From: Moorena producens 3L
GTDB taxonomy: Bacteria > Cyanobacteriota > Cyanobacteriia > Cyanobacteriales > Coleofasciculaceae
Reading direction: 5' to 3'
Length of the DNA: 16,454 nt
Assembly: GCF_000211815.1 (NCBI RefSeq)
Contig: NZ_GL890973.1
Location: 103,777 to 120,230, forward strand
The notes under the pieces were generated by a model. It was not told where the DNA came from. It saw nothing but the letters and a program-made list of their open reading frames with translations, and made no database searches. Below are positions 1,404 to 13,907 of this stretch, in pieces. Made by a program: the position numbers and the translations under genes. Each line of letters begins with the position of its first letter. Position 1 is the stretch's first letter.

Positions 1404-3026
1404 TTATCCCGTAGTTGAAACATCTAACTCTTGCCTAAAGCTTAGCCATGCTCTCATAGCCTCTGGATTAGATGCTACTCCTTTTTGCATCAAAATCACA
1501 CCATCTTTAAAACCAATGATGCCATACTCGTTAGTCTTGGTGACCCGGTCAATCATGTTAACTAAAGAGCGCAACCGCTGACCATCATGCTTAAAGGCAA
1601 TTTGATAGCGTTGTAACCGCCATAAATCTGCGATCGCATAATCCACCTTCACCACCTCGCCATTATCATTGCGCAACTGTAAATCCCCTAAGCGGATGAT
1701 TTCCCGACGTCCTGACAGATGAGGGACTAGATAGGTAGTAGCTGAGACACTAGCATTTGCAGGAATCTGAGCCAGTAATGACCGAATCGACCCCACACGA
1801 GACCACTGTTGGGTTAAGGGCACATAGACGAAGGGTTGGTAGGAATCGGGAAGGAGGAAATAAAAGGTTCGATTTGGGCTAGAGGTAATAGTCAACACTA
1901 CCGCAAGGGTTAGACAAAAAATCCAAAAGCGCCGAAACTTAGACCTAGCCGAGATCACAGCTTGACTAAATTGGGTATGAGCTGACCACCAAAGTATCGC
2001 GCCATAGAATAGCCCAGGTACTACGGTCATCGCATAGCGGATATTAATCGCAAGCACTGATTGACCTTTACCCAACAGAAGTTTTAGCAAGGGAAATGCT
2101 GCGATAGACCAAGAAGCGGGAGCAATAGCTGGTATAAATGCTAATGGTAACCATTGACCTAATAAATACTGAATGGTGCCAAAAAAGGGAGTAAACAGTT
2201 CTACTAGTAAACGCCAAGGATTAGTCAGCATACCCTTAATAATTTCCAGAGTAGACGCCTCATCCCCATCAGCGTACTGACCAAAACGCTCGATCATGAA
2301 CCGTTGAGAAATATCTTCCGAAAATAGGGGCATAATTAGATTGGTCAAGACAAGTATGTAACCGAAACTGAGGGTACAAACTGCCAGACCAATGCGAGGG
2401 TAGCGCCGACTGACTATTAAATAGAATCCCACACCAAACAAACCTATCCCGGAATCTTCCCGTACAGCTAAAATCAAAATTGCCAGCAACCAAAACAGCC
2501 ACCACCAGCGTTTTTCCATAGCTAGCAGTAGCCCAAATACAAATAGCGGAATTTGGCAGATGTCATGGAAATTGGCTAAGGTCGGACCGAGAATAGCATT
2601 AGCACAGTAAAAGCTAACCGTAATCATTGCTGCTAACATCGGTTGCAGATACTGTCTAGCCAGGATATACAAAACTACACCAGCAGCTGTTACCAACGTT
2701 ACCTGCAAAACGGTTAGGGTAGCGGGAAATGGAAACAAAGCATATAACGGTAACCAAAGTAACAGGGCGGGAGTAAAATGTTGCCCTAATCGGTGGTAAT
2801 AGACATTTGGAACTTCCCCATTATGAACTACATTAGTAGACAGCTGGGATGAAAGAGTACTCTGAAAGAAGCTACCGTGAATTCCATTCCAGAAGACTTG
2901 ATTAAAAATTCCTTGATCGTAGGAAGAATAAAAAGTATAGTGTCGATGTAGAGTAAAAATTAAGGTGAATAAAAAAAATGCGATCGCCGCAGTAATAACA
3001 AGTTTTAACCCAGGTTTTTTGGTCAT
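1404..3026 (-). CDS. Polytopic integral membrane protein of 540 aa, possibly DUF2079-like or GT-C-like.
   Basis: Listed 540-aa ORF. It has a dozen or more hydrophobic segments (e.g. LVITAAIAFFLFTLIF and the Trp-rich MEKRWWWLFWLLAILILA). An AAGGA Shine-Dalgarno sits 5 nt before ATG 3026. The N-terminal SYDQGIFNQVFWN resembles the first-loop Asp motif of DUF2079/GT-C membrane proteins. The family assignment is from memory only. Confidence 0.65.
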   Translation of the reverse strand: MTKKPGLKLVITAAIAFFLFTLIFTLHRHYTFYSSYDQGIFNQVFWNGIHGSFFQSTLSSQLSTNVVHNGEVPNVYYHRLGQHFTPALLLWLPLYALFPFPATLTVLQVTLVTAAGVVLYILARQYLQPMLAAMITVSFYCANAILGPTLANFHDICQIPLFVFGLLLAMEKRWWWLFWLLAILILAVREDSGIGLFGVGFYLIVSRRYPRIGLAVCTLSFGYILVLTNLIMPLFSEDISQRFMIERFGQYADGDEASTLEIIKGMLTNPWRLLVELFTPFFGTIQYLLGQWLPLAFIPAIAPASWSIAAFPLLKLLLGKGQSVLAINIRYAMTVVPGLFYGAILWWSAHTQFSQAVISARSKFRRFWIFCLTLAVVLTITSSPNRTFYFLLPDSYQPFVYVPLTQQWSRVGSIRSLLAQIPANASVSATTYLVPHLSGRREIIRLGDLQLRNDNGEVVKVDYAIADLWRLQRYQIAFKHDGQRLRSLVNMIDRVTKTNEYGIIGFKDGVILMQKGVASNPEAMRAWLSFRQELDVSTTG

Positions 3027-3170
3027 TTTTCCTTTGTCATTTGTCCTTGGTATTAAGCTCCAGAAAGTTTCGCTTTTTTAAAACTACTCTTGTTTTCAAC
3101 ACACCCTCACGCTTATCGGGAAAAAGATCTAGCGTTTCTCATAGCTATGAGGTACAAATATTTTTTTACC

Positions 3171-3383
3171 TCTTGCCTCTTGCCTTCCCCTCCTGGGAGG
3201 GGTTAGGGGTGGGTTCCTCTTGCCTTCCCCTCCTGGGAGGGGTTAGGGGTGGGTTCCTCTTGCCTTCCCCTCCTGGGAGGGGTTAGGGGTGGGTTCCTCT
3301 TGCCTTCCCCTCCTGGGAGGAGTTAGGGGTGGGTTCCTCTTGCCTTCCCCTCCTGGGAGGGGTTAGGGGTGGGTTCCTCTTGT
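3171..3383. repeat. 40-bp tandem minisatellite: 5 perfect or near-perfect copies (3178-3377) plus partial flanks.
   Basis: Unit is tcttgccttcccctcctgggaggggttaggggtgggttcc, at 3178, 3218, 3258, 3298 and 3338. There is a single G>A change in copy 4 (3321). Each unit carries the near-palindrome CCCCTCC-TG-GGAGGGG and G-runs (GGGGTTAGGGGTGGG). It lies between the hybrid kinase stop (3443) and the membrane-protein gene start (3026). Confidence 0.95.
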
Positions 3384-3442
3384 CTGCTCCCTGCTCCCTA
3401 AAGCCCATAATTTTGACCTCATTAGTTTGAGAATTGCTATAG

Positions 3443-5005
3443 CTAATTGCGACTACTCCCGAGCCATTCCGAATCAGAACTTCTCACCTCAGACCTCTGA
3501 CCTCTGACTTCCCCATTACTTACTATGGGAATTTTAATCGTAAATGTTGTCCCAACGCCCACTTCGCTAGTCAGTTCAATCTCTCCCTGATGCTGTTCCA
3601 CACAGCGTTTCACAATCGATAGTCCCAGACCAGTCCCTTGAATTGTCCCCACATTTTTGGCTCGATAAAAAGACTCGAAAATTTTCTTTTGGTCTGCTTC
3701 AGCAATCCCAATTCCTTTATCCTGGATGCGGAACACAACCAACTGCTGTTTCAGATCACAAGTTAGGTTAAAGGTCACGATTTCATGAGAAGGAGAATAC
3801 TTCAAAGCATTGGTAAGCAGATTAGTTATAATGTAATGTATAAGTTTATCATCCATACAGACTTCTGTATAGACCCCGTCAGAGGTAAAAACAATCCGGT
3901 TGCGGCTGGCTTGATCTAGGCATAGTTCTGCAATTAAATCCTGGCAGAATTGCTCTAAGTTCATGGGAGTTGGAATAAATTCTAGCCGACCTACTTCAGC
4001 TTGACCGATTAGCAACACCTCTTCCATCAACTCAGTCATGCGCTCTACTGAAATAGTAATTCGTTTTAGATAACGCTGCTTTTGCTCCTGAGTGGCCAGA
4101 TTACCATAGCGCTTAAGTAATTCAGCGGCAGTTAGGATCACACTGAGGGGATTACGGAATTCGTGGCAAACGGTGGAAACGAACTGGGAGCGGAAATCTT
4201 GTATTTCTTGCTCTTTTGCTAACACCTGCTCTAACATTTCTGTTTGAGGTTCCTCGCTGATATCCCAAAACGCCAGCACTACTCCATTCACGTTTCCCAG
4301 TTGGTCTTTTAGGGGTGAAGCACTATTACCAACAGGAATTCGACCACCGTCCTTTGCGATCAAAGCGTTATGCTCGCCCAGATAGACAACTTGTCCGGTC
4401 TTGATCACTTTATCTAGGGGATACTTGACTAGATTACCGGTCAGGTCATTAACAATTGGGAACACTGAGGTCACATCTCGCCCCCATACCTCCGATGCCT
4501 TCCAACCAGTCAGAGCTTCAGCGGGAGCATTCATAAAGGTAATGGTACCTTGGGTCGTGGTAGCAATAACTGCATCATCGATAGAGTTTAAAATGGATGC
4601 CAACTGAGCTTGGCTGTTCTGCAACGACTGCTCCATCTGGTATTGCTGGAGAGCCATTTCAATGGCAACCCGCAAGTCTCTCTCGTTAAACGGTTTGGTA
4701 ACATAGCCAAAGGGTTGGGTAACCTTAGCCCGTTGCAAGGTATCTTCATCCCCATAGGCAGTTAAATAGACGATAGGAATACGTAAATGTTCACGAATTT
4801 GCCTAGCAGCAGTAATACCATCCATCTTGCCTTTGAGGAAAATGTCCATCAGCACTAAGTCAGGCTTAGTTTGAGCGGCTTTGGTAATGGCTTGAGAGCC
4901 AGATGAAGCAGTAGCTGATACCATATAACCCAGTTGCTTAAGCTGGCTAGCAATTGTCTTAGCAACAATAACTTCGTCTTCTACAACTAACACCCTGGTA
5001 ACCAC
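3443..5005 (-). CDS. Hybrid two-component protein: N-terminal receiver (REC), PAS, HisKA and HATPase_c sensor histidine kinase.
   Basis: 520-aa ORF. The receiver fold is seen in RVLVVEDE...PDLVLMDIFL (phospho-acceptor Asp in LVLMD). A central PAS-like segment follows. The H-box is CHEFRNPLSVI and the ATPase G-boxes are DKGIGI and GTGLGLSIV. The start is GTG at 5005, overlapping the upstream TAG stop. Confidence 0.9.
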   Translation of the reverse strand: MVTRVLVVEDEVIVAKTIASQLKQLGYMVSATASSGSQAITKAAQTKPDLVLMDIFLKGKMDGITAARQIREHLRIPIVYLTAYGDEDTLQRAKVTQPFGYVTKPFNERDLRVAIEMALQQYQMEQSLQNSQAQLASILNSIDDAVIATTTQGTITFMNAPAEALTGWKASEVWGRDVTSVFPIVNDLTGNLVKYPLDKVIKTGQVVYLGEHNALIAKDGGRIPVGNSASPLKDQLGNVNGVVLAFWDISEEPQTEMLEQVLAKEQEIQDFRSQFVSTVCHEFRNPLSVILTAAELLKRYGNLATQEQKQRYLKRITISVERMTELMEEVLLIGQAEVGRLEFIPTPMNLEQFCQDLIAELCLDQASRNRIVFTSDGVYTEVCMDDKLIHYIITNLLTNALKYSPSHEIVTFNLTCDLKQQLVVFRIQDKGIGIAEADQKKIFESFYRAKNVGTIQGTGLGLSIVKRCVEQHQGEIELTSEVGVGTTFTIKIPIVSNGEVRGQRSEVRSSDSEWLGSSRN

Positions 5006-6600
5006 TATTGTTGTCCTATTGCTTCTACAATTGTTGCTGTTGAGAATACTATTCTGAAAGCTGTGCCCTCGCTATGGCCCTGAAACATACTCCCGTCTAG
5101 TTGCTCCGTTGCCAGGTCATAAACTAACGATAATCCTAAAGACTGGGTATTACGCCAATCTAACTCTTCTGGTAAACCAACCCCATTATCTCGGACAATC
5201 AATTCAACCTGATCGTCCCCGCTATGGTGCAATTCAATGTGAATCTCACCATAGCGTCCATTGGGAAACCCGTACTTCAGGGAATTGGATACCAGTTCAT
5301 TGATGATTAGACCGCAAGGGATGGCCTGATCAATACTGAGGGAAATGGGTTCAATAGTCGTGTGCAACTGAATCCTATCGCTAGTTACTTGATAAGCTAC
5401 CAGTAAGTTCACCGCTAGGTTCTGGATATAATCCACTACATCCAGGTTGCCTATCACTGAGGCACCATAAAGTTTCTTGTGAATGAGAGCCATGGCTTCA
5501 AGGCGATGGCGAGCTTCCGACAGGTGTACTCGGGTTTGGGGTTGATCTACTGTCAGAGATGGCAAGTGTAGTAAGCTAGAAACAATTTGTAAGTTGTTTT
5601 TGACCCGATGGTGAATTTCTTTGAGCAGCACCTCTTTCTCAACTAGGGTAGCTTTGAGGTTTTCCTCGACCTGTTTGAGCTGTGTGATGTCGATGGCTAT
5701 GTTATGGATCCGAATTGGAGTGTTATTAGCATCTGTGAGGAGGTGAGCACGATGGCGAATCCAACTCACAGCTCCATCCGGTCGCAAAATTCTGTAGTCA
5801 ATATCTTTGGCACCAGTTGACAGCAGGGTTTGGTGTGCCAGTTCATAGGTTTCGAGATCCTCTGGGTGAACCACTGATTCCCACAGGCGTAAGTTTCCGA
5901 AGAACTCAGTGATACTGCGACCATAGACTTGCTCGGTAGCACTGTTAAGATAAAGCAGTTTGTCAATCGAAGGATCAAAAGACCATACCACTGCTTCTAG
6001 GGAAGTCAGAATACTCTCAAGACGTTCTTGGCTCAACTGCCAGGCATGTTCATTTTCCCCCAATTCTTCTTCAAACTGCTGATTGACAGCAACTTCCTGC
6101 TGCCATCGCTGATTAGCTGCCACTAATTCCCCTTCTTTTTGACTCAACTGTTGGTGTAAGTCTTCGACCTTAGTAACAATAGCAGAGAGGATGGCTGGCA
6201 TGGTGTGGGGGGTCACCACACGCACTACTTGACCTGGTTCATCCACTAGGGGTAGGTGACGAATCTGGTGTTGACGTAATCGGGACTCTACCAAAAAAAT
6301 GTCCGGTTTCGCTATGATGGGCAAGGTAATTAACTCTTGAGTCATCACATCAGCGATGGAAACCCCTGAGTTGACCATTCCGGCTGATGCTACTTTGACC
6401 ACATCCCGTTCTGTAAAAATGCCTACCAATTGCTGCTGCTGTACTACCAGCACATAACTCCTTCGAGTTTGATTCATCGTAGCGATCGCTTCCGTTACTG
6501 GAGTATCGGGAGCAATGGTGATCGGCTGCTGGTCGCAAGGAAAATTTACAATGGAAAGTTGACCAGAAATGCCATTTTTCAGGTAATCTTTAGCTTCCAT
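5005..6600 (-). CDS. Sensor histidine kinase with a CBS pair, PAS domain, HisKA_2-type phosphoacceptor and HATPase_c.
   Basis: 531-aa ORF. The N-terminal CBS pair reads ...GIFTERDVVKV...ELITLP.... A coiled-coil linker and a PAS segment (LEAVVWSFDP...) follow. The H-box EIHHRVKNNLQIVSSLL is typical of HisKA_2/HWE kinases. The ATP-binding site is NELVSNSLKYGF...VRDNGVGLP. Confidence 0.9.
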   Translation of the reverse strand: MEAKDYLKNGISGQLSIVNFPCDQQPITIAPDTPVTEAIATMNQTRRSYVLVVQQQQLVGIFTERDVVKVASAGMVNSGVSIADVMTQELITLPIIAKPDIFLVESRLRQHQIRHLPLVDEPGQVVRVVTPHTMPAILSAIVTKVEDLHQQLSQKEGELVAANQRWQQEVAVNQQFEEELGENEHAWQLSQERLESILTSLEAVVWSFDPSIDKLLYLNSATEQVYGRSITEFFGNLRLWESVVHPEDLETYELAHQTLLSTGAKDIDYRILRPDGAVSWIRHRAHLLTDANNTPIRIHNIAIDITQLKQVEENLKATLVEKEVLLKEIHHRVKNNLQIVSSLLHLPSLTVDQPQTRVHLSEARHRLEAMALIHKKLYGASVIGNLDVVDYIQNLAVNLLVAYQVTSDRIQLHTTIEPISLSIDQAIPCGLIINELVSNSLKYGFPNGRYGEIHIELHHSGDDQVELIVRDNGVGLPEELDWRNTQSLGLSLVYDLATEQLDGSMFQGHSEGTAFRIVFSTATIVEAIGQQ

Positions 6601-8605: not shown

Positions 8606-8688
8606 TGTTAACAGTTGACAGTTAACTGTTAACTGTTAACCGTTAACAAAATAGCAATTAACAATTAACAATTAACAATTAACAATAT
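8606..8688. repeat. Heptanucleotide STRR arrays: GTTAAC-containing heptamers (8606-8647) and AATTAAC x4.5 (8655-8686).
   Basis: tgttaacagttgacagttaactgttaactgttaaccgttaac followed by caattaacaattaacaattaacaattaacaat. It lies directly after the dxs stop. GTTAAC is itself palindromic, so the array can form hairpins. Confidence 0.9.
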
Positions 8689-9775: not shown

Positions 9776-9804
9776 TTAGGGATTAGGGATTAGGGAGTAG
9801 GGAG
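9776..9804. repeat. STRR heptamer array TAGGGAT/TAGGGAG x4.
   Basis: ttagggattagggattagggagtagggag immediately after the mtnA stop. Confidence 0.85.
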
Positions 9805-9805
9805 C

Positions 9806-9846
9806 GGTGCGACCCGTGGCGAATTTAATTACGGGTCAAGCGCACC
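9806..9846. repeat. Bulged stem-loop element, copy A of a duplicated about 25-bp core (copy B at 10134-10178).
   Basis: GGTGCGACCCGT-ggcgaatttaatt-ACGGGTcaagCGCACC. The 5' arm is an exact reverse complement of the 3' arm apart from a 4-nt bulge. The 25-mer ggtgcgacccgtggcgaatttaatt recurs exactly at 10134-10158. Confidence 0.8.
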
Positions 9847-9879
9847 GAGGGAGTGGGGAGTCGGGGTAATAAAATTGAA

Positions 9880-9909
9880 TGTACCTGATAAGGAGTGAGA
9901 AACGCTATA
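9880..9909 (+). repeat. Small dispersed dyad-symmetric repeat, about 30 bp, SDR-like. Other copies at 10206-10234 (+), 3129-3157 (-) and a partial at 10028-10044 (-).
   Basis: Consensus TGTACCTCATAGCTATGAGAAACGCTATA with palindromic core CATAGCTATG. Copies read 9880 tgtacctgataaggagtgagaaacgctata, 10206 tgtacctcataactgtgagaaacgctata, and the reverse complement of 3129-3157 tgtacctcatagctatgagaaacgctaga. Confidence 0.75.
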
Positions 9910-9976: not shown

Positions 9977-10017
9977 ATGGGTGTTTAGATCATGGGTGTT
10001 TAGATCATGGGTGTTTA
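9977..10017. repeat. 15-bp tandem repeat atgggtgtttagatc x2.7. A second array of x2 lies at 10239-10268.
   Basis: atgggtgtttagatcatgggtgtttagatcatgggtgttta, and again at 10239 as atgggtgtttagatcatgggtgtttagatc. Confidence 0.9.
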
Positions 10018-10058
10018 TAGCAATTATCATAGCTATGAGGTACACAATTTCGGGATTT

Positions 10059-10116
10059 TAGGTAATAGGTAATAGGTAATAGGTAATAGGTAATAGTAAT
10101 AGGTAATAGTAATAGG
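10059..10116. repeat. STRR heptamer array GGTAATA (about 8 copies, two shortened to GTAATA).
   Basis: taggtaataggtaataggtaataggtaatagtaataggtaatagtaataggg. Confidence 0.9.
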
Positions 10117-10372
10117 GATGCGCTGCATCAAGAGGTGCGACCCGTGGCGAATTTAATTCTTAATGGTAAGAGCGCACCTAACAGGGAATCAGCTTCAAAG
10201 AATACTGTACCTCATAACTGTGAGAAACGCTATAGATCATGGGTGTTTAGATCATGGGTGTTTAGATCAAAGCCCTGCAGCTGTAGAACCGTCAACAGTC
10301 AACGCTCAACAGTGAACAAAACATGATCAATTAAAATATGCACATAAAATATCAAATAGCTAAGAGGAAATC

Positions 10373-12084: not shown

Positions 12085-12228
12085 AGCTATCAGCTATCAG
12101 CTATCAGCTATCAGCTATCAGTTATCAGCTATCAGCTATCAGTTATCAGCTATCAGCTATCAGCTATCAGCTATCAGCTATCAGTTATCAGCTATCAGCT
12201 ATCAGTTATCAGCTATCAGCTATCAGCT
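12085..12228. repeat. STRR heptamer array AGCTATC/AGTTATC of about 20.5 copies, organised as two identical 63-bp higher-order blocks.
   Basis: Units 1-9 (12085-12147) and 10-18 (12148-12210) share the same C/T variant pattern C-C-C-C-C-T-C-C-T. Two further units and a partial follow. Confidence 0.92.
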
Positions 12229-12348: not shown

Positions 12349-12397
<49 letters not shown>

Positions 12398-12464: not shown

Positions 12465-13907
12465 ATGACTTTAGAAAACTCATCAGATAACTCATCAGAT
12501 AACTCATCAAATAACTCATCAGATAACTCATCAAATAACTCATCAAATAACTCATCATTGAATAGTAGCAGTCGGTTGTGGCGTCGGTTAGTATCAGTGC
12601 TGGCTAACTTACGGTTAGCGATTATCTTGCTGCTTGCGATCGCATTCTTTAGCATCAGCGGTACAGTTATTGAACAGGGTGAATCTCTGGCATTTTACCA
12701 AGCTAATTATCCTGAAGACCCAGCGTTGTTTGGTTTCCTGAGCTGGAAGGTGTTGTTGCTGCTAGGGTTAGATCATGTCTACCGGACTTGGTGGTTTTTG
12801 TCCTTATTAGTGTTATTCGGTAGTAGTCTGACCGCCTGTACCTTCACTCGTCAATTTCCAGCTTTAAAAGCAGCCCGGAATTGGAAGTTTTACAAAGAAC
12901 CCCGCCAGTTTGGGAAACTTGCTTTGAGTGTAGAGTTGGACAAGGGGTCTTTTACTTCCCTCACTGAGTTGTTAGAGAAGCGGCGTTACAAGGTATTCCA
13001 AGAGGGGGATACTATCTACGCCCGTAAAGGAATTATCGGACGGATTGGTCCAATTGTAGTACATGCCAGTATGTTGATTATCCTGGGAGGGTCAATTTGG
13101 GGCTCAATGACAGGATTTACGGCTCAGGAAATGGTTACCAGTGGCAATACATTCCAAGTTAGAAACATTATTGATGCCGGTCCGTTTGCTTGGCCCCAAA
13201 TCCCCAAAGATTTGTCAGTGCGGGTGAATCGTTTCTGGATTGATTACACTCCATCCGGGGATATTGATCAATTTTACTCCAATCTGTCAGTTTTGGATAG
13301 TCAAGGTGAGGACATTGACCAAGAGACTATCTATGTGAATAAGCCCCTAAGATATCGAGGTGTCACCTTTTACCAAACGGATTGGGGGATTGCTGGGGTT
13401 CAGGTGCAGTTGAATAATAGTCCAATTTTCCAGCTTCCCATGGCACAACTTCCCACTAATGGTGAGGGACGGATTTGGGGCACTTGGGTTCCCACAAAAC
13501 CTGATTTAAGTGAAGGGGTATCCCTTTTAGCTAGGGATTTGCAGGGAACCCTGTTTGTTTATGATGGAACGGGTAATCTCGTTTCAAGTGTTCGTTCTGG
13601 TATGGGGATTAAGGTCAATGGGGTGATACTTAAAATTAAAGATGTCATCGGCAGCACTGGCTTACAAATTAAAGCTGACCCGGGTATTCCCTTTGTTTAC
13701 ACTGGCTTTGGTTTACTGATGTTAGGGGTACTGATGAGTTATGTCTCCCACTCTCAGATTTGGGCATTACAAAAAGGCGATCGCTTTTATATTGGTGGGA
13801 AAACCAATCGTGCTTTGGTCACCTTTGAACGGGAATTGATTGAGATTTTAGAGCAGGTGGGTGAATCATCCCAGACCGTAGAACCTTTACTAGCTAAATC
13901 TGCTTAG
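12465..13907 (+). CDS. ccs1: Cytochrome c biogenesis protein Ccs1/ResB (CcsB, System II).
   Basis: 480-aa ORF. The ResB-family N-terminal signature is [50 protein letters not shown]. It has a large soluble domain and the C-terminal [25 protein letters not shown]. It lies directly downstream of ccdA. The true start is uncertain: ATG 12465, or in-frame TTG/GTG after the repeat. Confidence 0.9.
12478..12561 (+). repeat. In-frame 12-bp tandem repeat AACTCATCA(G/A)AT x7 inside the 5' end of ccs1.
   Basis: It encodes (N)[26 protein letters not shown]. The variant order is G,G,A,G,A,A. The opposite strand reads [11 protein letters not shown]... Confidence 0.9.

Follow-up and report, generated by a model that had tools for sequence, protein, structure and literature searches.

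Between two genes of the filamentous cyanobacterium Moorena producens 3L lies a nearly perfect array of 40-bp repeats, and the question it raises is whether such an array serves the cell or is a by-product of mobile DNA. The stretch analysed here (the window; 16,454 nucleotides, contig NZ_GL890973.1, positions 103,777 to 120,230) carries the array in a 416-bp gap that separates two minus-strand genes, one for a DUF2079 membrane protein and one for a hybrid histidine kinase. A first-pass annotation had recognised this setting, and the open reading frames (ORFs) and domain matches confirm it; it had suggested a protein-binding array, an insulator, a terminator of the kinase operon or a hypervariable locus. 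We conclude, with a probability of roughly three in four, that the array is a lineage-specific amplification within a mobile element and no conserved device of the cell. It has the look of unstable selfish DNA and not that of a regulatory site that has been conserved.

The array and the mobile element that carries it

Tandem Repeats Finder, run on the window, places the array at 3176-3382, with 5.2 copies of the consensus CCTCTTGCCTTCCCCTCCTGGGAGGGGTTAGGGGTGGGTT, 98% matches and no indels. The near-perfect five-copy minisatellite of the first pass is thus confirmed down to its single change, at 3321; the proposed extent of 3171-3383 agrees for the array itself and fails at the start, as position 3171 lies within an extra CCTCTTG copy of the heptamer array at 3169-3185. 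Each unit joins one CAAGAGG-type heptamer to a 31-nt element, TT-CCCCTCC-TG-GGAGGGG-TTA-GGGGTGGG-TT. The 27-nt core of this element, CCCCTCCTGGGAGGGGTTAGGGGTGGG, occurs five times in the window (four exact copies and one with G>A at 3321) and had no match in 200 dinucleotide-preserving shuffles. All units contain the palindrome CCCCTCC-TG-GGAGGGG, with a C-A mismatch in the one changed at 3321, and the tract GGGGTTAGGGGTGGG is found in each of them. Because the corresponding unit in Moorena sp. SIO3B2 also carries the 3321 variant, this change is inherited and not an error. Two other kinds of repeat were rejected: a CRISPR array, as the first pass had also argued, since the units are contiguous with no unique spacers between them, and a coding repeat, since a period of 40 is no multiple of 3.

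The carrier of the array has the features of MITEs (transposable elements of the miniature inverted-repeat kind) apart from a partner transposase: it has terminal inverted repeats (TIRs) and a target-site duplication, is small, non-coding and multi-copy, and has both filled and empty orthologous sites (coordinates in Table 1). The two ends of 3130-3441 pair when folded as single-stranded DNA (z -3.4), and the left-arm terminus (3130-3156) recurs in the fetched loci L003, L119, L001 and L125. At its right end the element reads ...TTGCTA, followed by TA at 3440-3441, one more base and the kinase stop codon. The only ORF across the MITE is a chance ORF of 81 amino acids with a TTG start on the opposite strand.

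Two full copies and one partial copy of the MITE stand within the 16-kb window, and there are more in L119, L002 and L003. Copy 2 interrupts a 15-bp tandem repeat exactly at TA (ATGGGTGTT-TA-GATC). As TA stands on both sides of this copy inside the interrupted repeat, the target duplication is TA; the 15-bp array (ATGGGTGTTTAGATC, 9977-10269, split by copy 2 into 2.7 and 2.5 copies) thereby provides an 'empty-site' control within the window. The partial copy (9776-9909), which retains one terminus only, directly follows an mtnA-like gene and has the hairpin module GGTGCGACCCGTGGCGAATTTAATT...GCGCACC in common with copy 2 (10131-10180). A plasmid BLAST search with copy 2 gave no match, and literature string searches for the core and the TIRs returned nothing relevant.

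The kinase-to-DUF2079 spacer was compared between the window and six other Moorena genomes, reached via cluster members; the DUF2079 protein of the window is identical over 540 of 540 residues to an entry common to M. producens 3L and related Moorena. The site is filled in four of the seven genomes and empty in three. M. bouillonii PNG, Moorena sp. SIOASIH and SIO3I6 have a 110-bp spacer with no element; M. producens PAL-8-15-08-1 (PAL) has the MITE at the same TA, filled with heptamer arrays only and lacking the 40-bp unit; in SIO3A2, SIO3B2 and the window the MITE contains five 40-bp units. Sister genomes thus keep INTERMEDIATE states: empty site, MITE with heptamers only, and MITE with array. 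The PAL copy has TA on both flanks, and its interior is made up of (TAGGTTT)~12, (GGGAGCA)~11 and (CAAGAGG)3. On the gene strand, CAAGAGG-CAAGAGG in PAL aligns with CAAGAGG-[AACCCACCCCTAACCCCTCCCAGGAGGGGAAGG]-CAAGAGG in the window (33 nt between the heptamers, five times). Because the PAL MITE is collinear with that of the window and contains heptamers only, the 40-bp unit can be resolved into one heptamer plus an insert of about 31-33 nt. All seven genomes have conserved the approximately 85 bp next to the DUF2079 start, a region beyond the limits of the MITE.

The repeats change faster than their surroundings. In a 1.6-kb region centred on the array, the window and SIO3A2 differ by four substitutions within the 231-bp repeat block and by three in the roughly 1360 bp outside it; for SIO3B2 the corresponding figures are two substitutions plus one heptamer indel, and two substitutions. 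The repeat block therefore shows about 8-fold more differences than its flanks. It is always the first base of a unit that carries the G/C variants (3216, 3256, 3296, 3336), and which units are affected depends on the strain. A mosaic of unit variants like this one would be expected from inter-unit conversion or unequal exchange, and it fits the 'recent expansion or concerted evolution' proposed in the first pass. The number of trailing heptamers also varies, being two or three depending on the strain.

Architecture and dispersal of the 31-nt element

After the hairpin and a TTA spacer, each unit continues with the G-tract GGGGTGG, which is the mirror image of GGAGGGG with A replaced by T. An antiparallel fold-back of this tract would produce triads, six of the G∗G.C and one of the T∗A.T type. 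The first pass had correctly listed a hairpin and a G-tract per unit and had overlooked their mirror (triplex) relation and the MITE around them. The geometry (stem of 7, loops of 2 and 3 nt) is inside the ITxF criteria (stem 6-15, loops 1-6), and an ITxF-like scan of the window returned four perfect class II motifs, namely the four unmutated units, compared with 0.04 per shuffle.

The mirror rule was derived from the sequence first, and the literature class was matched to it afterwards. It also holds in modules that had not been selected by the search: TCCCCC-ttattaa-GGGGGA-TTT-AGGGGG, CCCCCCT-tacta-AGGGGGG-TTA-GGGGGGA, CCCCCTC-ttgg-GAGGGGG-TT-GGGGGGTG, CCTCCCCCT-cgt-AGGGGGAGG-cgg-GGTGGGGGT and CCCTCTCCCC-ttcggaa-GGGGAGAGGG-tca-GGGTGAGGGG. 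We then counted third domains at all asymmetric C/T-arm hairpins in the fetched loci, taken independently of the pattern (335 hairpins, 135 of them with arms of at least 8 nt). A perfect mirror copy of the arm follows on the 3' side in 45 of the 335 (27 of 135 with the longer arms) and a perfect direct copy in 9 (2 of 135). On the 5' side there are 4 perfect mirror copies (4 of 135) and no direct copy in either set. The 45 perfect 3' mirror cases comprise 21 different arm sequences, with which the third domain covaries.

Class II purine-motif intrastrand triplex motifs were first seen as BoxC in Escherichia coli, then described as potential intrastrand triplex (PIT) elements (Hoyne, Maher and colleagues, 2000) and surveyed as triplex motifs (TM) by Holder et al. 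2015 (PMC4666352). By all sequence criteria tried, the 31-nt element is a predicted member of this PIT/BoxC/TM class: a pyrimidine-rich domain is followed by its complementary purine domain and by a mirror third domain, the geometry is that of ITxF, and the copies are dispersed, numerous and mostly intergenic.

Dispersal of the core was followed in a genome collection with a loose pattern, which gave at least 119 stretches among the matches listed; all of these counts are lower bounds. Among the matches listed, the exact 27-mer occurs in single copies in several Okeania contigs, a Trichodesmium metagenome-assembled genome (MAG), Oscillatoria sp. HE10JO and Moorena sp. SIO3I8, the single Moorena locus covered, and variants of it by 1-2 nt were met considerably more often. 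In these cyanobacteria the core nearly always lies in a heptamer array or at its edge (tgtctcc, tgactcc, ccctact, cttctga, cccatct and others). The exact core was also found in at least 120 metagenome contigs. In 134 metagenome copies, again among the matches listed, the flanking dinucleotide is TT in 117 on one side and TT or TC in 120 on the other; since these flanks are kept, the conserved element is the 31-mer TT-core-TT. One large metagenome family comes from soil contigs of GC~0.6 and has conserved flanks of its own. These contigs (L127-L243, GC about 0.6) contain dozens of diverged copies of GCGTTCGTCCGCGTCCTGTCAGTT-[exact 27-mer]-TTCATGGTCCCAATGCATGCG; as this longer soil element contains the exact 27-mer, a core identical to that of Moorena is embedded in another repeat family of high-GC soil bacteria.

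The junction between two 40-bp units, when searched in the metagenomes, gave no match. Judged by these searches, the core belongs to an ordinary dispersed family, and the 40-bp composite is specific to this locus as far as tested. The possibility of a dispersed repeat family, which the first pass had named as fatal to its own view, is accordingly realised for the 27-31-nt core, widely dispersed as it is, and not for the 40-bp composite, which was not found elsewhere. When plasmids were searched by BLAST with the array region, the one match was a short stretch of a Nostoc plasmid (Nostoc sp. NIES-3756, NZ_AP017296.1, 382235-382276) that resembles the G-rich core; it is 92% identical and lies under an 'ATP-binding protein' gene.

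Tandem arrays of related motifs occur in unrelated genomes, among them members of other phyla: 32 bp x 2.9 with an identical core, beside (TCTTCCT)n, in a cyanobacterial MAG; triplex-motif arrays of 39 bp x 6.8 and 38 bp x 5.0, each in a Bacteroidales MAG; and 41-bp units with an identical core, within higher-order repeats, on a 483-kb metagenome contig. Tandem amplification seems to be a general tendency of triplex motifs. On one metagenome contig (Ga0101944_10000043; L203, 600-1900) the higher-order repeat measures about 131-216 bp, and each of its copies has 0-4 tandem 41-bp units with the exact 27-mer, together with an oppositely oriented CCCACCCCCGGCCCCTCCGGAGGAGGGG module. In a Prevotella MAG (L019) the hairpin-plus-G-tract motif stands in frame in the signal peptides of two lipoprotein-like ORFs (4626-4656 and 5570-5599; ...LLAPLLLGGVGGGLFLSSC), and two adjacent copies in opposite orientation occupy the spacer between these two genes (4760-4833).

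Within Moorena, the motif and the MITE family meet more than once. The core copy of SIO3I8 lies in another member of the family, at the same position and in the same orientation relative to the ...ATGAGGTACA terminus, and after it come CTGCTCC heptamers and another, different triplex motif. A diverged terminus of the family, TCGCAGTTATGAGGTACG, is present in L002 (6340-6410) and L003 (6450-6520), where it stands 16 nt from the TCCCCC-ttattaa-GGGGGA-TTT-AGGGGG motif. Judging from these sequences, it may be usual for members of this MITE family to have a triplex motif close to one terminus.

Triplex motifs are also gained or lost between strains at a second orthologous site, which lies downstream of DUF2079. 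It holds a (GGGAATN)n array with between about 2 and about 10 heptamer copies among the seven genomes. SIO3B2 has a single copy of the 31-mer within this array (L125, about 4150-4190), PAL and SIOASIH have a CCCCCC-agaatt-GGGGGG-CTA-GGGGGG motif beside it (L003/L123, about 4150-4215), and the window has neither the 31-mer nor a motif of the C6/G6 type there.

Probable origin of the array and competing explanations

The sequence of events would begin with what the strains themselves display: a MITE of about 310 bp, with 24-27-nt TIRs and a TA duplication, inserted in some Moorena lineages just past the kinase stop codon, with an interior of heptamer arrays of the short tandemly repeated repetitive (STRR) type. 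A 31-nt class II element then came into the CAAGAGG array; its presence and architecture are apparent, and it may have got there by inserting independently or through conversion, with another MITE copy as the donor. Next, slipped-strand mispairing of the heptamers on either side, or unequal exchange between them, would have duplicated motif plus heptamer and created the 40-bp unit, as the unit boundaries and the mosaic variants suggest. Replication stalled at a hairpin, triplex or G-quadruplex (G4) of the single-stranded G-rich strand probably favoured this duplication. Further slippage in the 40-bp register, together with inter-unit conversion, would have yielded the five copies and homogenised them. 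For the flanking genes the consequences are probably neutral or incidental, the gene-strand transcript offering only C-rich hairpins.

Folding was modelled with ViennaRNA on both strands, as the first pass had proposed, and a hairpin is predicted on either strand. With RNA parameters it is preferred on the plus strand (-18.0); on the gene strand the hairpin is the only predicted structure (RNA hairpin of -14.7 kcal/mol per unit), and with a z of -1.9 the gene-strand RNA does not stand out in its folding. RNA, according to PMC4666352, does not form purine-motif triplexes. Because the gene strand forms only the hairpin and RNA forms no such triplex, any effect of a triplex or G4 would be exerted at the DNA level, on the plus strand, which is the template strand of both flanking genes.

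Several observations weigh against the origin proposed here. The copy number of the 40-bp unit is five in all three array-bearing strains, so ongoing slippage or a copy-number VNTR (variable number tandem repeat) is not demonstrated; the first-pass term 'hypervariable' is apt for presence or absence (three sites empty, one with heptamers only, three with five units) and for sequence, and inapt for copy number. The empty allele differs by about 20 nt beside the site, and as the sequence between MITE and flank is unlike that of the filled allele, the empty site is no clean pre-insertion site. In the window copy the left target duplication has decayed to TC. No transposase with matching ends was identified, and no TIR-directed search of genomes or metagenomes was made. 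As to structure, the 2-nt first loop probably lowers the effective stem to six pairs, and the published work detected a triplex neither in duplex DNA nor by dimethyl sulphate footprinting in vivo (PMC4666352). Triplex, G4 and hairpin, finally, are alternatives for the same plus strand, and with DNA parameters ViennaRNA assigns -16.7 kcal/mol per unit to a three-tetrad G4 and -7.1 kcal/mol to the hairpin.

These last energies speak for reading the plus strand as an array of five G4 motifs, instead of triplexes, acting on replication or transcription. Each unit has four tracts of three or more Gs with loops of 1, 3 and 1 nt (GGG-A-GGGG-TTA-GGGG-T-GGG), which fits the canonical (G3+N1-7)x4 motif, on the plus strand only, as the first pass had stated; in vitro, G-rich heptamer repeats from Nostoc and Xanthomonas fold into G4s (PMC4692102). 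The family as a whole argues otherwise. Many members have only GG before the A (e.g. CCCCTCCTTGGAGGGG) or have arms such as GGGGGA or AGAGGGG, and relatives without four G3 tracts still retain the mirror third domain. The C-rich arm, superfluous for a G4, is always present, and nuclear magnetic resonance (NMR) of the related E. coli oligonucleotide TMECO excluded a G4 and favoured a triplex (PMC4666352). We consider a G4 array unlikely.

An extension of the amplification model would credit the 31-nt element itself with mobility: as a self-propagating mini-element it would, in filamentous cyanobacteria, enter heptamer arrays and MITEs by preference, and its fold-back would drive tandem amplification. 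The identical element does occur across phyla, in cyanobacteria of 35-45% GC, in a large family of high-GC soil bacteria and elsewhere. We offer the idea as speculation and would not expect it to hold; if it did, 'triplex-motif minisatellites', of which at least four unrelated genomes hold examples with periods of 32-41 bp, would constitute an undescribed general class of bacterial repeat.

A functional cis-regulatory element, whether a terminator or insulator of the kinase operon or a binding-site array controlling the DUF2079 promoter, would suit an array flanked by the 3' end of the kinase gene and the start of DUF2079. Each unit would moreover add a stable RNA hairpin to the gene-strand transcript, and MITEs elsewhere can bear promoters, BrickBuilt being an example (PMC4596501). 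The strain comparison makes this very improbable, however: three Moorena genomes lack the whole element and a fourth lacks the unit, and the genes and the DUF2079-proximal region are kept in all. No evidence emerged at this locus for terminator, promoter or insulator function or for a conserved array of binding sites. A promoter and terminator scan of 2800-3700 gave no such site inside the MITE (3130-3441) on either strand. The hairpin was rejected as an intrinsic terminator since no U-tract follows it on the transcribed strand, where it runs into AAGGCAAGAGG. Rfam had nothing at gathering score in the whole window and, at E<=1 in 2950-3520, only chance matches to microRNA models (E 0.7-0.9). 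The unremarkable gene-strand fold points the same way, as does the orientation of copies elsewhere relative to their neighbouring genes, which showed no consistent bias in a crude stop-to-stop ORF analysis. For PIT elements neither promoter nor terminator activity was seen in E. coli, and in vitro they blocked DNA polymerase (PMC4666352). The regulatory roles suggested in the first pass are therefore set aside in favour of amplification within the MITE.

A contingency locus, in which the 40-bp copy number tunes expression of the downstream DUF2079 gene by phase variation, would suit an array upstream of that gene, in a block that outpaces its flanks in change and has two or three trailing heptamers depending on the strain. 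[quoted passage not shown] The chance that a collapsed or inflated assembly produced the array is negligible, even if some of the genomes are draft assemblies or MAGs, as five units are found in three independent assemblies with differing internal variants and identical flanks, and 207 bp is within read or insert length.

Features of the window and relation to known systems

Table 1. Positions in the window of the array, the mobile element and its further copies, and the flanking genes.
Feature	Position	Strand	Evidence and remarks
DUF2079 membrane protein gene	1404-3026	-	ORF list and domain match
MITE-like non-autonomous element, about 310 bp	3130-3439	+	TIRs, filled and empty sites; inserted 1 nt downstream of kinase stop codon (3443-3445)
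TIR left arm TAGCGTTTCTCATAGCTATGAGGTACA	3130-3156	+	Repeat finder; 93% complementary to 10206-10232, 89% identical to 10018-44
Heptamer (STRR-type) CCTCTTG x2.4	3169-3185	+	Tandem Repeats Finder; CAAGAGG on gene strand; triplex motif embedded in this array
40-bp minisatellite	3176-3382	+	5.2 copies; unit = CCTCTTGCC + 31-nt element TT-core-TT
Triplex-motif core 1, CCCCTCC-TG-GGAGGGG-TTA-GGGGTGGG	3187-3213	+	Core search, triplex scan
Triplex-motif core 2	3227-3253	+	Core search, triplex scan
Triplex-motif core 3	3267-3293	+	Core search, triplex scan
Triplex-motif core 4	3307-3333	+	Core search; G>A at 3321 breaks one stem pair and one triad
Triplex-motif core 5	3347-3373	+	Core search, triplex scan
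Heptamer CTGCTCC x2.3	3384-3399	+	MITE interior; about 11 copies in PAL ortholog
TIR right arm ACCTCATTAGTTTGAGAATTGCTA	3416-3439	+	Repeat finder; pairs with left arm in DNA fold
TA target-site duplication	3440-3441		Partner 3128-3129 degenerate (TC) in window
RR-PAS-HisKA-HATPase hybrid histidine-kinase gene	3443-5005	-	ORF list and domain match; stop codon 3443-3445
Partial third MITE copy	9776-9909	+	(TTAGGGA)4; internal hairpin module as in copy 2; one terminus ...GAGAAACGCTA followed by TA
MITE copy 2, opposite orientation, without triplex motif	10018-10232	+	Repeat finder; TA at 10016-10017 and 10233-10234

The window is unusually dense in STRR-type repeats. Long intergenic heptamer arrays include TTAACAA x11 (8608-8686), TAGGTAA x8.6 (10059-10116), AGCTATC x20.6 (12085-12228) and GCTGACC x6.7 (12349-12395). 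The heptamer TCTGACC (x3.9, 3482-3508) lies within the 3' end of the kinase coding sequence, and the C-terminal tail of the kinase varies among Moorena strains at this repeat. In a ResB-like ORF (12465-13907), the 12-bp repeat AGATAACTCATC (x7.1, 12473-12557) occupies the first 30 or so codons, upstream of the start of the Pfam ResB match at residue 49; either this protein carries a tail of repeats at its N terminus, or translation truly begins at a more downstream codon. Its highly iterated palindrome (HIP1) sites and many heptamer repeats give the window Nostoc-like traits. The first pass had assumed an affinity to Nostocales, which is mistaken, as Moorena belongs to the order Coleofasciculales.

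For annotation, our conclusion means that the array should carry no terminator, insulator or binding-array label and should be described as strain-specific mobile DNA. It is a clean natural case of three nested repeat layers, a triplex motif in a heptamer array in a MITE, and the locus could serve as a strain-typing marker in Moorena. Two things are new here: this particular MITE family of Moorena, and a triplex motif amplified into a direct 40-bp array inside the MITE.

Several known systems resemble one layer or another. The dispersed elements SDR1-8 of the Nostocaceae, reported by Elhai et al. in 2008, are said to be 21-27 nt long, nested in other repeats and present or absent between relatives, and reportedly occur only in that family; set against this description, the Moorena element differs in being found in Coleofasciculales and beyond. 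The pilE G4 of Neisseria gonorrhoeae (GGGTGGGTTGGGTGGG) is akin to the Moorena unit in having G3-4 tracts with loops of about 1-2-1 on one strand. It is, however, a single-copy, locus-specific initiator of recombination with a dedicated small-RNA promoter and no C-rich arm.

The STRR heptamers and the G4-forming GGGNATC/GGGGAYT repeats of Nostoc and Xanthomonas (PMC4692102) have in common with the Moorena arrays one G-rich strand, a place between genes of like orientation and a variable copy number. Heptamer arrays of this kind fill the Moorena MITE and flank the unit, whereas in the 40-bp unit a heptamer is joined to a structured element of 31 nt. Nezha (Zhou et al. 2008; reviewed in PMC3184786) is an intergenic MITE with TIRs, a short direct duplication and filled and empty orthologous sites; its sequence is unrelated as far as checked, its host belongs to a different order, and heptamer arrays and triplex motifs make up the interior in Moorena. 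BrickBuilt of Porphyromonas gingivalis (PMC4596501) has a spacer-less tandem repeat between small inverted-repeat ends and is intergenic, multi-copy and strain-variable. Its 23-nt unit defines the body of its MITE and it has promoter activity, whereas the Moorena minisatellite is present only in some MITE copies and alleles, and no promoter was found in it.

Among the PIT/BoxC/TM motifs, the E. coli TM consensus is CCCTCNCCC-N3-6-GGGNGAGGG-N3-GGGNGAGGG, for example CCCTCTCCCTTGAGGGAGAGGGTTAGGGTGAGGGT, and TMECO, CCCTCTCCC-TTGA-GGGAGAGGG-TTA-GGGTGAGGG, forms a stable triplex in vitro as an oligonucleotide, with circular dichroism, 18 imino NMR signals and a melting temperature of 70-82 C as evidence (PMC4666352). 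The Moorena element has the same order of domains (C-rich arm, loop, G-rich arm, TTA loop, and a mirror third domain with A or T opposite A) and is likewise intergenic, dispersed and multi-copy, marking loci that vary between close strains. Its stem is shorter than that of TMECO (7 nt versus 9), as is its first loop (2 nt versus 3-6). G/C-rich TMs are very abundant in cyanobacteria, and TM loci are more rearranged among E. coli strains than control sites (PMC4666352). Our findings support this published link of intrastrand triplex motifs with local genome instability and extend it to marine filamentous cyanobacteria. The copies surveyed by Holder et al. are single or in inverted pairs (PMC4666352), whereas in Moorena the motif forms a direct 40-bp tandem array nested in a MITE.

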